Positions 9,147 through 11,999 of a stretch of DNA of 64,000 bases are shown here, one piece after another. Below the pieces are notes generated by a model, which searched no databases, was not told where the DNA came from, and saw only the letters and a program-made list of their open reading frames with translations. Every line of letters begins with the position of its first letter. The first letter of the stretch is position 1. This DNA is from an uncultured bacterium (GTDB lineage: Bacteria > Patescibacteriota > Minisyncoccia > Phycocordibacterales > UBA2100). The position numbers were made by a program, and so were the translations under genes. The stretch spans positions 5,184 through 69,183 of the forward strand of contig CAIJXH010000007.1 in assembly GCA_903824595.1 (NCBI GenBank). Reading direction: 5' to 3'.

Positions 9147-11999
9147 ATGAAGCAGTACGATCACACAAAGATAGAGAAGAAATGGCAAAAAGAGTGGACG
9201 AAAAAAAAGCTGTATAAAACCGCCGACACGGTGAAAGGTAAAAAGAATTTCCACCTGCTCCTCGAGTTCCCCTATCCGTCCGGCAATTTGCACATCGGGC
9301 ACTGGTACGCCTTTGCGGTGCCCGACATTCTGGCGCGCACACTGCGAATGCAGGGAAAGAATGTGCTGTTCCCGTTTGGCTTCGACGCCTTTGGTTTGCC
9401 CGCCGAAAATGCCGCGATCAAGCGCGGACTCAATCCGCGCATTTGGACGTATCAAAACATGGCACACATGAAAAAGCAGATCGAAAGCTGTGGCGCGTCG
9501 CTCGATTGGTCGCGCGAGGTAGTTACCTGTGATCCATCCTACTATCGTTGGACGCAATGGATGTTTACGCAATTTTTCAAAAAAGGACTTGCGTACCAGA
9601 AAGAGACACCTGCCAACTGGTGCCCTTCGTGCAAGACCGTGCTCGCCAACGAGCAGCTCGTGGCAGGGAAGTGCGAGAGATGCGGCACCGAGGTGGAACA
9701 GCGCCAGATGCTTCAGTGGAATCTTGGTATTACGAAATATGCCGACCGCCTTACCGACGACCTCGCTGCCATCGACTGGCCCGAGCAGATCAAAGAAGCG
9801 CAACGCAATTGGATCGGGCGAAGCGAAGGAGCGGAGATTGATTTCAAGCTAACAATGGGCGAGAACATAACCGTCTTCACCACCCGTCCCGACACGCTTT
9901 TTGGTGCGACGTATCTCGTGCTTGCACCAGAACACCCTCTCGTAGCTCAATTCTACACAAGTCAGACTTGTGTAAATAGAGATGAAGTAGAAATGTATGT
10001 CAGACAAGCGAAGAAGAAGACCGATCTGGAACGACAGACGGAGCAAAAAGACAAAACGGGCGTCGAGCTCAAGGGTGTGAAGGCCATCAATCCTGCGACG
10101 GGAAAAGAAATCCCTGTGTGGATTGCCGATTATGTGCTTGGTCACTACGGCACCGGTGCCATTATGGCGGTGCCCGCACATGACGAGCGTGATTTTGCAT
10201 TTGCAAAAAAGTTCGGGTTGCCGATCGTGAATGTAATCGAGCCTCTTTCTGTTGATCTTGAAGGAGTGAGTCGCGCTCGACTCGACATGCCGTTTGTGGA
10301 GCGTCAGACCATTATCGCGTTTGTAAAACATTGGTCAGAAGACTCGTATCTTATTTTGGACTGGAAGCAGGTGGGGTGGCATTCGGGTGTTACGGGGGGA
10401 GTTGAAGATGGTCAAACACCGGAAGAGGCGGCGCGTGCGGAAATACACGAAGAAACAGGGTATCGCAACCTCAAGCTCCTACGAGTGTGCGGAAAAGGGC
10501 ATGAGAAATTTTTCCATGTTCCCAAAAATGTCAATCGATTGACCCACTATCAATGCTTTTTGTTTCAGCTTGAAAACGATGAGCGTGATGTGATTTCCGA
10601 CGATGAAGCACAAAAACATTCAATGCGATGGGTTCCTGCGCATCTTATCGAACATACTCTTACTGCCGCTGCGCAACGTTTTGAGTGGCGCATGCTTCAA
10701 TGTGAAGGTGCATACTGCGGTGATGGCGTACTACATAACTCCGGAGTATTCTCCGGACTCAATACAGAAGAAGCTGGAAAAAAAATGACAATGGCGTTTG
10801 GTCGCCCGAAGAAAACCTACCGCCTGCGCGACTGGGGTGTGTCGCGGCAGCGGTATTGGGGTGTGCCGATTCCGATTATCCATTGCGAAAAGTGCGGTGC
10901 GGTGCCGGTGCCCGACAAGGACTTGCCGGTGAAATTGCCGGAGGTGAAAGATTATTTGCCCACCGGTGATGGCAAATCGCCACTCGCAAAGGTGGAGAAA
11001 TGGGTCAGCGTGAAGTGTCCGCAGTGCAAAGGAAAAGCCAAACGTGAGACAGACACACTCGACACGTTCGTGGATTCTTCGTGGTACTTCTTGCGCTACG
11101 CCGATCCGAAGAACAAAACGAAATTCGCCGATCCAAAAAAGCTTAGTGCATGGATGCCGGTCGATCTCTACTCGGGTGGCGCGGAACACACTACCATGCA
11201 CCTCCTGTATTCGCGCTTCTGGCAAAAGGCGCTCTATGATTTGAAATTGGTCAAAGACAGCGAGCCATACACGCGCCGTATGAACCGCTCCCTCATCCTC
11301 GGACCCGACGGGCAGAAGATGAGCAAATCAAAAGGCAACGTGATCGATCCCGACGATGTGGTGAAGCGTCTCGGAGTCGACACAGTGCGCATGTATCTCG
11401 CCTTCGTGGGTCCGTACAACGAAGTGGCGAGCTATCCGTGGAATCCAGACGGCGTGGTGGGCGTGCGGCGATTTTTGGAGCGCGTGTGGCGTGCCGGGGA
11501 ATTGGTGGGGAAGAAGGAGGTCGCGACACTTGATGGCATCTTGCACAAGACGATCAAGAAAGTGGGCGACGACAACGCCGCGCTCAAATTCAACACCGCC
11601 ATCAGCGCACTCATGATTCTCCTGAATGCGATCGAAAAAGAGAAGGCGATAGGCACGAAACAGTGGGCGATCGTGCTGCGGCTGCTCGCGCCGTTTGCGC
11701 CGCACGTGGCGGAAGAATTGTGGCGCGCGGCAGGCAACAAAAAATCCATCCATCTCGAAACGTGGCCGAAATTTGATCCACAGAAACTCATCGACGAATC
11801 CGTGGTGATCGGCATACAGATCAACGGCAAAACGCGCGGCGAGGTTGCCATTGCCGCTGGCACCAGCAAGGAGGAAACAGAGAAAGCGGCGCGCGCGGCT
11901 ATCGCCGCGCGCCTTGAAGGCAAGCACATTCTCCGCACCATCGTCGTCCACAATCGTCTCGTGAATTTTGTTGTGAAGGAGGAATCGTCCCGCGACTAA
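9147..11999 (+). CDS. leuS: Leucyl-tRNA synthetase with an embedded Nudix-like domain (aa ~366-526)
   Basis: HIGH motif (PYPSGNLHIGHWY), KMSKS (KMSKSKGN), and the LeuRS-specific blocks YRLRDWGVSRQRYWG and DTFVDSSWYFLRY. The protein is 950 aa against about 800-860 for canonical LeuRS; the extra segment carries GGVEDGQTPEEAARAEIHEETGY, a Nudix-box-like motif. Confidence 0.95.
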   Translation: MKQYDHTKIEKKWQKEWTKKKLYKTADTVKGKKNFHLLLEFPYPSGNLHIGHWYAFAVPDILARTLRMQGKNVLFPFGFDAFGLPAENAAIKRGLNPRIWTYQNMAHMKKQIESCGASLDWSREVVTCDPSYYRWTQWMFTQFFKKGLAYQKETPANWCPSCKTVLANEQLVAGKCERCGTEVEQRQMLQWNLGITKYADRLTDDLAAIDWPEQIKEAQRNWIGRSEGAEIDFKLTMGENITVFTTRPDTLFGATYLVLAPEHPLVAQFYTSQTCVNRDEVEMYVRQAKKKTDLERQTEQKDKTGVELKGVKAINPATGKEIPVWIADYVLGHYGTGAIMAVPAHDERDFAFAKKFGLPIVNVIEPLSVDLEGVSRARLDMPFVERQTIIAFVKHWSEDSYLILDWKQVGWHSGVTGGVEDGQTPEEAARAEIHEETGYRNLKLLRVCGKGHEKFFHVPKNVNRLTHYQCFLFQLENDERDVISDDEAQKHSMRWVPAHLIEHTLTAAAQRFEWRMLQCEGAYCGDGVLHNSGVFSGLNTEEAGKKMTMAFGRPKKTYRLRDWGVSRQRYWGVPIPIIHCEKCGAVPVPDKDLPVKLPEVKDYLPTGDGKSPLAKVEKWVSVKCPQCKGKAKRETDTLDTFVDSSWYFLRYADPKNKTKFADPKKLSAWMPVDLYSGGAEHTTMHLLYSRFWQKALYDLKLVKDSEPYTRRMNRSLILGPDGQKMSKSKGNVIDPDDVVKRLGVDTVRMYLAFVGPYNEVASYPWNPDGVVGVRRFLERVWRAGELVGKKEVATLDGILHKTIKKVGDDNAALKFNTAISALMILLNAIEKEKAIGTKQWAIVLRLLAPFAPHVAEELWRAAGNKKSIHLETWPKFDPQKLIDESVVIGIQINGKTRGEVAIAAGTSKEETEKAARAAIAARLEGKHILRTIVVHNRLVNFVVKEESSRD

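Follow-up and report, generated by a model that had tools for sequence, protein, structure and literature searches.

How does a Nudix domain come to stand inside a leucyl-tRNA synthetase (LeuRS), and what might it do there? The question is raised by the gene leuS on a stretch of 64,000 nucleotides (nt) from an uncultured bacterium of the Patescibacteriota (assembly GCA_903824595.1, contig CAIJXH010000007.1, positions 5,184 to 69,183), called the window here. Few known enzymes are as conserved as the aminoacyl-tRNA synthetases, and in those of bacteria nested extra catalytic domains are rare. An earlier note on the window had read leuS as a LeuRS with a Nudix-like domain spliced into it in frame. 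That reading was followed up with profile searches, structure prediction and surveys of related proteins and genomes. The nested domain recurs widely among Patescibacteria, and the answer towards which we lean is a working pyrophosphatase tied in function to the synthetase.

A Nudix domain nested in the LeuRS editing domain

The features of the gene are given below, with coordinates in the window, strand and, in brackets, the source of the assignment.

9147-11999, + strand: leuS open reading frame (ORF), bacterial-type leucyl-tRNA synthetase with nested Nudix domain, 950 amino acids (aa) (ORF translation, TIGR00396, AlphaFold2, Foldseek)
9291-9302, + strand: HIGH signature H49-I-G-H52 of the class I catalytic core (translation)
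9804-10244, + strand: CP1 editing domain, N-terminal 147 residues, aa 220-366 (PF13603 match to aa 220-370)
9879-9896, + strand: T-rich motif TTRPDT, aa 245-250, inside the N-terminal part of CP1
10176-10193, + strand: AHDERD with the conserved Asp, aa 344-349, inside the N-terminal part of CP1
10245-10703, + strand: nested Nudix domain, aa 367-519, 153 aa (alignment to 1h3n and PF00293)
10395-10463, + strand: Nudix box variant GGVEDGQTPEEAARAEIHEETGY, G417-Y439 (read from the sequence)
10704-10790, + strand: CP1 editing domain, C-terminal remainder, aa 520-548, where the chain re-enters CP1 (PF13603 after in-silico excision)
10791-11996, + strand: second half of the catalytic core (RLRDWGVSRQRYWG at aa 559), anticodon-binding domain and C-terminal domain
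11316-11330, + strand: KMSKS, aa 724-728

The host was identified with profile hidden Markov models (HMMs). The protein scored 972.8 bits against TIGR00396 (leuS_bact; cut-off 548.4), the match falling into two stretches, and 207.7 bits against the editing-domain family PF13603. Together with the uninterrupted ORF, the TIGR00396 score bears out the claim of in-frame nesting in a bona fide bacterial LeuRS. HIGH, KMSKS, TTRPDT and AHDERD with its conserved Asp are all kept. H49 and G51 of HIGH are invariant in an alignment of LeuRS relatives; among 120 such relatives T246, R247 and T250 never vary, and conservation of H345, D346 and D349 is 90% or higher. Since the editing motifs are retained, the Nudix domain is no substitute for a decayed editing site. 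By HMM and motifs the host is an intact bacterial-type LeuRS, for which editing activity is predicted.

An AlphaFold2 (AF2) model of the full-length protein had a mean predicted local distance difference test score (pLDDT) of 87.9 and was matched by Foldseek to solved LeuRS structures at TM-scores of 0.74-0.81. The canonical enzymes of Thermus thermophilus (1H3N, 2BYT, 2BTE) and Escherichia coli (4AQ7, 4ARC) have the same domain order at about 38-40% identity. The leucine-specific domain, which stands beside KMSKS in most bacterial LeuRS and is not universal, is absent from the window protein. T. thermophilus residues ~580-636 have no counterpart in the 1h3n alignment, the window protein reading ...SLILGPDGQKMSKS, and a short GPDG linker before KMSKS replaces the domain (region 11289-11330, aa 715-728). 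The LeuRS of Mycoplasma mobile is reported to have a GKDG tetrapeptide at this place (PMC3643597). Because that enzyme too lacks the domain, its absence is no bar to membership of the bacterial LeuRS.

Alignment to 1h3n equated window aa 1-366 with T. thermophilus residues 1-364 and aa 520 onward with residues 374 onward. About 153 aa (367-519, nt 10245-10703) stand in for a T. thermophilus loop of about 9 residues (365-373). The interval first proposed for the insertion, 10242-10725, held the actual insert and 22 nt more; its location stood, and its length of some 160 aa came down to the 153 or so that were aligned. Scanned alone, the insert matched PF00293 (NUDIX) at E=5.6e-14 and 52.7 bits (cut-off 21.1), as the earlier note had expected of a genuine Nudix domain. 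In the native protein the PF13603 match ends at profile position 146 of 185. After in-silico deletion of aa 367-519 it became contiguous, covering profile positions 1-181 of 185 and aa 220-395 of the spliced protein; the insert therefore lies inside the CP1 editing domain, not between the end of CP1 and the catalytic core, where it had been placed before.

Structure prediction agreed. The insert modelled alone reached a pLDDT of 86.3 and a predicted TM-score of 0.80, and residues 360-520 of the full-length model had pLDDT values of 90-98. The model has the alpha/beta/alpha Nudix fold with the loop-helix-loop catalytic motif. The insert is thus, as modelled, a complete and independently folding Nudix domain set in a loop on the surface of CP1, towards its C-terminal end. 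No Nudix domain was found in the solved LeuRS structures matched by Foldseek, nor a second Nudix copy elsewhere in the 64-kb window. An intein or other mobile element was considered and rejected: the sole domain match of the insert is to Nudix, and its free-standing homologues are ordinary genes.

The box of the window insert, GGVEDGQTPEEAARAEIHEETGY, departs from the full canonical form GX5EX7REUXEEXGU in the two ways that had been noted before. Q423 occupies the Glu position of GX5E, and R430/A431 replace xR, the Arg coming one residue early. E432, E435 and E436 are intact. Boxes with Gln at this first position (box position 7) are called Q-type below, and those with Glu E-type.

The possibility that the architecture is an artefact, either a chimera made in metagenome assembly or a split or frameshifted gene mis-read as one ORF, was given a negligible probability. 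The one mild anomaly in its favour is the lower G+C content at third codon positions (GC3) of the insert. Against it, at least four contigs, the longest of 71 kb, encode the identical 950-aa protein, and over 8,124 nt that include all of leuS and both junctions the window agrees at 99.975% identity with a contig from another assembly (L001). ORF 9147-11999 is uninterrupted, the same junctions recur in hundreds of LeuRS homologues from unrelated studies, and AF2 folds host and guest confidently in one chain. The mis-assembly against which the earlier note had cautioned was accordingly discarded, the contigs and the L001 match ruling out a chimera.

Distribution among Patescibacteria and free-standing relatives

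In a full-length search, precomputed Pfam annotation placed PF00293 in 118 of the 120 closest LeuRS relatives, which are 56-80% identical to the window protein; the members named by source are Candidatus Kaiserbacteria, Patescibacteria and Parcubacteria. Two size classes were seen among the 120, one of about 945-975 aa with the Nudix domain only and one of about 1,120-1,150 aa with Nudix and alpha/beta-hydrolase domains. An exhaustive HMMER search over 1.84 billion representatives, made with a junction-spanning query that included LeuRS flanks and so favours LeuRS hosts, returned 722 matches at E<=1e-3 and 71 at E<=1e-30. Domain positions were mapped with an HMM from the free-standing family, and fragmentary proteins were classed by motif proximity. 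Nudix domains of representative LeuRS mapped to the loop used in the window in 220 cases, just before CP1 in 13 and to the start of CP1 in 2. The site before CP1 lies between DLDxxD and WPExxKxxQRNWIG. Some LeuRS have two or three Nudix copies (for example P0135, P0136 and P0137). A tandem pair just before CP1 occurs among P0135, P0136, P0137, P0144 and P0145, and P0135 and P0136 have their third copy at the loop of the window. In P0137 the catalytic core is also interrupted by some 60 additional aa.

One genome per GTDB species was scanned with Nudix-only peptide patterns from a Q-type alignment. Among the best 80 loci, 67 matching ORFs had LeuRS motifs and 2 were of LeuRS-like length, giving about 69 embedded domains in ORFs of 530-1,560 aa; about 11 loci were free-standing. 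The genomes were labelled Nomura-, Moran-, Berkel-, Azam-, Colwell-, Sung- and Taylor-bacteria, Paceibacterota and Saccharimonadales, and one locus is on a complete Moraniibacteriota chromosome. Taxon labels are those of the deposited records, of which a few ('Nanoarchaeota', 'Gammaproteobacteria') are probably mis-binned.

Judged by sequence comparison, the Nudix domain in CP1 is a clade-wide trait of Patescibacteria LeuRS and not a one-off. The architecture, at first called unusual, is so relative to textbook LeuRS; within a large Patescibacteria clade it is the norm (118/120 relatives, 220 same-site domains). The survey of related leuS genes that had been proposed found the same loop occupied in these 220. 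A singleton fusion was also entertained and was overturned by the full-length and exhaustive searches; an insert-only word-index search had missed the LeuRS hosts.

Many Kaiserbacteria-like LeuRS (P0016, P0018, P0024-P0031 and others) also contain an alpha/beta-hydrolase domain (PF12697/PF00561/PF06821). P0016 has it nested close to where CP1 begins, at about PF13603 profile position 21. The alignment consensus has a GHSxG nucleophile elbow and Asp and His positions later. Around the editing domain of these LeuRS there are therefore two additional hydrolase domains. Such genes are named 'class I tRNA ligase family protein', 'NUDIX domain-containing protein' or 'alpha/beta fold hydrolase' in the databases; because of the nested domains, annotation pipelines mislabel many of them instead of calling them leucine--tRNA ligase.

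The closest sequence relatives of the insert are Nudix genes that stand alone and encode 100-169 aa. Identity to the insert is 45-53% over 58-99% of its length, in most cases over nearly all of it. The insert therefore equals a whole small (160-aa) Nudix protein grafted into a loop. Free-standing Patescibacteria proteins of 150-170 aa (P0001-P0012 and those of loci L003, L067, L072, L077 and L083) share the box GGVExGQTxEEAARAE(I/V)xEExGY with the window insert, and also the downstream motifs KF(Y/F)HxPKxxNR, E..KH and W. They are separate genes, unlike the embedded domain of the window. Their contexts are Patescibacteria-like, with RNase Y, FtsA/FtsZ and YbeY nearby. Two Saccharimonadales loci have a free-standing Q-type Nudix gene some 50 nt upstream of leuS and in the same orientation (L077, Nudix 3989-4480 and leuS 4532-7426; L083, Nudix 3932-4423 and leuS 4470-7358), and both leuS genes have in addition an E-type Nudix domain at the CP1 loop.

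Further neighbours of the free-standing genes were recorded. The copy in L084 (Doudnabacteria) is about 2 kb downstream of a MetRS-like gene. A small DUF1653 gene directly follows the free-standing Nudix gene in L003 (6001-6725) and L004 (1730-2454). In L005 a DUF1653 gene (16515-16733) lies about 6 kb downstream of a leuS without insert, and any link to Nudix may be coincidence.

The Nudix box and the candidate substrate

Is the altered box of the window insert still a catalytic one? Box residues were counted in the 220 representative LeuRS Nudix domains classed at the CP1 loop of the window. G1 is kept in 219 of these, E7 in 193 (Q in 17), R15 in 198, E16 in 219, E19 in 215, E20 in all 220 and G22 in 219. 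Most orthologous LeuRS inserts thus have the canonical box, and the pattern of conservation indicates strong purifying selection on the catalytic motif at this site. Free-standing genes, Q-type included, keep E16 in 28/28, E19 in 25/28 and E20 in 28/28 cases.

The two departures go together. R15 is present in 219 of the 222 sequences with E7 and missing from 39 of the 41 with Q7, 28 of those 39 having R14. The Q-type group (n=41) comprises 19 free-standing proteins, 17 inserts at the loop of the window, 4 inserts before CP1 and 1 of unresolved context. From these alignments the window insert is placed in a minority Q-type subclade with Gln7, a residue other than Arg at position 15, usually Arg14, and the three core Glu residues kept. 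The GX5E Glu and the box Arg interact, bracing the Nudix loop-helix-loop. As E7 and R15 are replaced as a pair, compensation is indicated rather than decay, and the Q-type box is probably a compensated structural variant that is still catalytic. The degenerate binding module offered before as one option is therefore unlikely: the variant is conserved, co-varies and is common to free-standing genes. A decayed box was ruled out on the same grounds, subfamily conservation and E7/R15 covariation.

Residues after the box were compared for hints of the substrate. The window sequence reads RNLKLLRVCGKGHEKFFHVPKNVNRLTHY. In 282 sequences, an aromatic residue (F/Y) is found at +16 in 272 and at +17 in 268, K/R at +21 in 264, N at +24 in 265 and R at +25 in 191. 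Basic and aromatic residues after the box mildly favour a nucleotide with a polyphosphate chain. Known subfamily signatures are an invariant tyrosine downstream of the box in ApnA hydrolases (the Bessman signature), a conserved proline 16 residues after the box in ADP-ribose pyrophosphatases, and SQPWPFPxS after the box in NADH pyrophosphatases (PMC6856373). The ADP-ribose subfamily was rejected, +16 being F/Y in 272/282 with Pro absent from the five commonest residues, and so was the NADH subfamily, SQPWPFPxS being absent after the window box. In NCBIfam the RppH, NudB, YtkD, NudI, MutT and NudE models were all below threshold for the insert, and no subfamily could be assigned.

The best structural match, 2AZW, is a stand-alone, uncharacterised MutT/nudix protein of Enterococcus faecalis at 14% identity and permits no transfer of function. 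After it, the closest characterised neighbours are ApnA, Ap6A and diphosphoinositol-polyphosphate hydrolases: Rv2985 of Mycobacterium tuberculosis, Ndx1 of T. thermophilus, human DIPP1/NUDT3 and yeast DDP1, at 15-19% identity to the insert and with a small margin over other Nudix classes.

Explanations, genomic surroundings and significance

The explanation that we lean towards, with modest confidence, is an active Nudix pyrophosphatase tethered to the LeuRS editing domain, the two activities probably being coupled and the substrate perhaps a dinucleoside or other polyphosphate. LeuRS would then be a bifunctional enzyme with a Mg2+-dependent pyrophosphohydrolase attached to its editing domain, and the recurrence of the pairing would reflect functional coupling and not accidental fusion. 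Coupling is inferred because Nudix domains occur at three sites around CP1, in tandem copies, as a different Nudix in the same loop, and as a free-standing paralogue upstream of leuS. The substrate, the most speculative point, would be a nucleotide with a polyphosphate chain, dinucleoside polyphosphates such as diadenosine tetraphosphate (Ap4A) being the best candidates. Synthetases make Ap4A from aminoacyl-adenylate, and the tethered domain may clear Ap4A-like products beside their site of synthesis. By analogy with characterised Nudix enzymes, in-cis hydrolysis of Ap4A or adenylate by-products, raised in the earlier note, is weakly favoured.

Several observations weigh against this explanation, and some of them speak for a different one: that the insert is a house-cleaning nucleotide pyrophosphatase, mechanistically unconnected with leucylation, which settled in an insertion-tolerant peripheral loop of CP1. 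Nesting in an essential, constitutively expressed gene would guarantee its expression in tiny, regulation-poor genomes, and its turnover would be neutral. We regard this as possible, though doubtful. The CP1 loop differs among close relatives. The window has a Q-type Nudix domain. P0017, with a backbone 83% identical, has at the same loop a Nudix domain with the canonical box GGAIESGEGVRESLARELREELGY that the family HMM does not recognise. P0020 (locus L005), 81% identical in backbone, has no insert and a loop shorter than that of T. thermophilus. Its locus is syntenic (YchF - DUF5671 - leuS), and the DNA is 77% identical to the window on both sides, with about 570 nt between the homologous blocks in the window and about 90 nt in L005. 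Loss is the parsimonious reading of P0020 because nearly all relatives have the insert, and to judge from this ortholog the insert is dispensable for LeuRS as such. Among the 120 relatives the mean pairwise identity is 41% for inserts and 72% for backbones, with a correlation of r=0.40; the faster evolution of the insert could mean relaxed constraint. The closest backbone neighbours of Q-type LeuRS mostly have E-type inserts, and Q-type inserts are scattered across backbone similarity space. The window insert is most like the insert of P0016 (54%), the pre-CP1 copy of P0144 (52%) and free-standing genes (about 50%), and only 25-37% identical to the inserts of its nearest backbone relatives. 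GC3 drops from 0.655 in the remainder of leuS to 0.43 in the insert, exactly where a sliding window has its lowest value. (The CP1 region overall is at about 0.5, and the catalytic core and C-terminal half are at 0.65-0.77.) Taken together, the mismatch between insert and backbone, the swaps and the GC3 dip suggest that the guest has been replaced in cassette fashion or evolves fast. Most free-standing copies are not adjacent to leuS, and an unrelated alpha/beta-hydrolase has also entered CP1 in many relatives, which suggests a permissive platform. Two further points count against coupling and catalysis: all LeuRS-linked copies could descend from one ancient insertion with local duplication, which would weaken the case for recurrent recruitment, and the Q7/A15 variant drops two canonical residues, so that catalysis may be reduced or altered here. 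The bias of the junction query towards LeuRS hosts belongs with them. A permissive site alone, in turn, does not predict that one host should be paired with one kind of guest. About 69 of the best 80 Nudix-only genome matches lie in LeuRS, P0017 has a second, unrelated Nudix at the identical loop, and a free-standing copy adjoins leuS in two Saccharimonadales genomes.

Other views of the domain were given less weight. CP1 of Patescibacteria LeuRS might be a docking platform for extra hydrolases acting on LeuRS products or ligands, an idea we hold to be rather unlikely. Such a platform would hold one to three Nudix domains and often a serine alpha/beta-hydrolase, which would clear Ap4A or adenylate-derived nucleotides or process the tRNA or aminoacyl-ester end; swapping among free-standing genes and the three LeuRS sites would then reflect selection for activity on the enzyme. 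If true, a synthetase would gain a third catalytic centre, even a fourth, and organisms with minimal genomes a new layer of quality control or signalling. It is less probable still that the Q-type changes abolished hydrolysis and left a domain that binds nucleotide, tRNA or protein, or serves as a scaffold, as in NrtR or mL46. Two canonical box positions are altered in the window, and the structural neighbours include the non-enzymatic NrtR (3gz5/3gz8), AraR (5bs6) and an MRP-L46 domain protein (6ywe_6). The near-invariance of E16, E19 and E20 in all classes argues against such a loss, as do the paired covariation of the two changes, which indicates compensation, and the retention of each canonical residue in 193-220 of the 220 same-site LeuRS inserts. 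Very improbable is built-in immunity, in which the nested hydrolases would degrade adenylate-mimic LeuRS inhibitors of the agrocin-84/TM84 or microcin-C kind. Circumstantially, LeuRS is a target of adenylate mimics, and complexes with TM84 and with Leu-AMS analogues are among the fold matches; two hydrolase types cluster around CP1 in relatives. NF040702 (ileS_w_GNAT, 'isoleucine--tRNA ligase, N-acetyltransferase domain-containing') is by its family name another class Ia synthetase with an added enzyme domain, although its guest is a GNAT, unlike the Nudix of the window, whose protein scores 89 bits against a cut-off of 1999. No defence or immunity family was matched in PADLOC, and the trait is clade-wide and looks old, whereas resistance genes tend to be patchy. 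Adenylate mimics carry phosphoramidate or sulfamoyl linkages and are usually handled by HIT or peptidase enzymes, whereas Nudix enzymes cleave pyrophosphate linkages.

Other features of the window were recorded as follows.

166-562, + strand: RNase P RNA class A, bacterial (115.4 bits, just above the gathering score of 100)
4704-4775: tRNA-Gly(CCC)
12253-12325, - strand: tRNA-Glu(CTC), just downstream of leuS
12359-12673, - strand: small ORF between tRNA-Glu(CTC) and tRNA-Arg(CCT)
12706-12779, + strand: tRNA-Arg(CCT), just downstream of leuS
19535-21457: GH130 phosphorylase-family protein, 640 aa
22937-23010: tRNA-Asn(GTT)
26984-27098, + strand: LOOT RNA (Rfam RF03000; 74.9 bits, gathering score 46.4), directly upstream of an ORF starting at 27103
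41906-45001, + strand: Peptidase C39-domain protein, 1,031 aa
51525-53300, + strand: HlyD-family protein, 591 aa

The C39 and HlyD proteins resemble a bacteriocin-type processing and export system. In PHROGs the insert matched only generic Nudix families and, weakly, segments within a phage portal-protein family (at E=2e-7) and within a head-maturation-protease family (phrog_15528 and phrog_3778). By these matches, Nudix domains may also be nested in some phage structural proteins.

No paper describing the Nudix-in-LeuRS architecture was found in a full-text search of open-access papers and bioRxiv, and neither 'tRNA synthetase' nor 'tRNA ligase' occurs in the text of a review of the Nudix clan (PMC5389931). 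Host (bacterial LeuRS) and guest (Nudix superfamily) are both known; their combination is visible in automatic domain annotation. An apparently active pyrophosphatase stands in the proofreading domain of an essential synthetase over a large part of the Patescibacteria, or candidate phyla radiation (CPR). The system is directly testable, with a recombinant enzyme, a natural insert-free ortholog and obvious catalytic glutamates. Coupling of the two activities would make this a novel form of in-cis clean-up or regulation at a synthetase; without coupling, minimal genomes would still provide in it a clear natural case of nested domains and cassette turnover.

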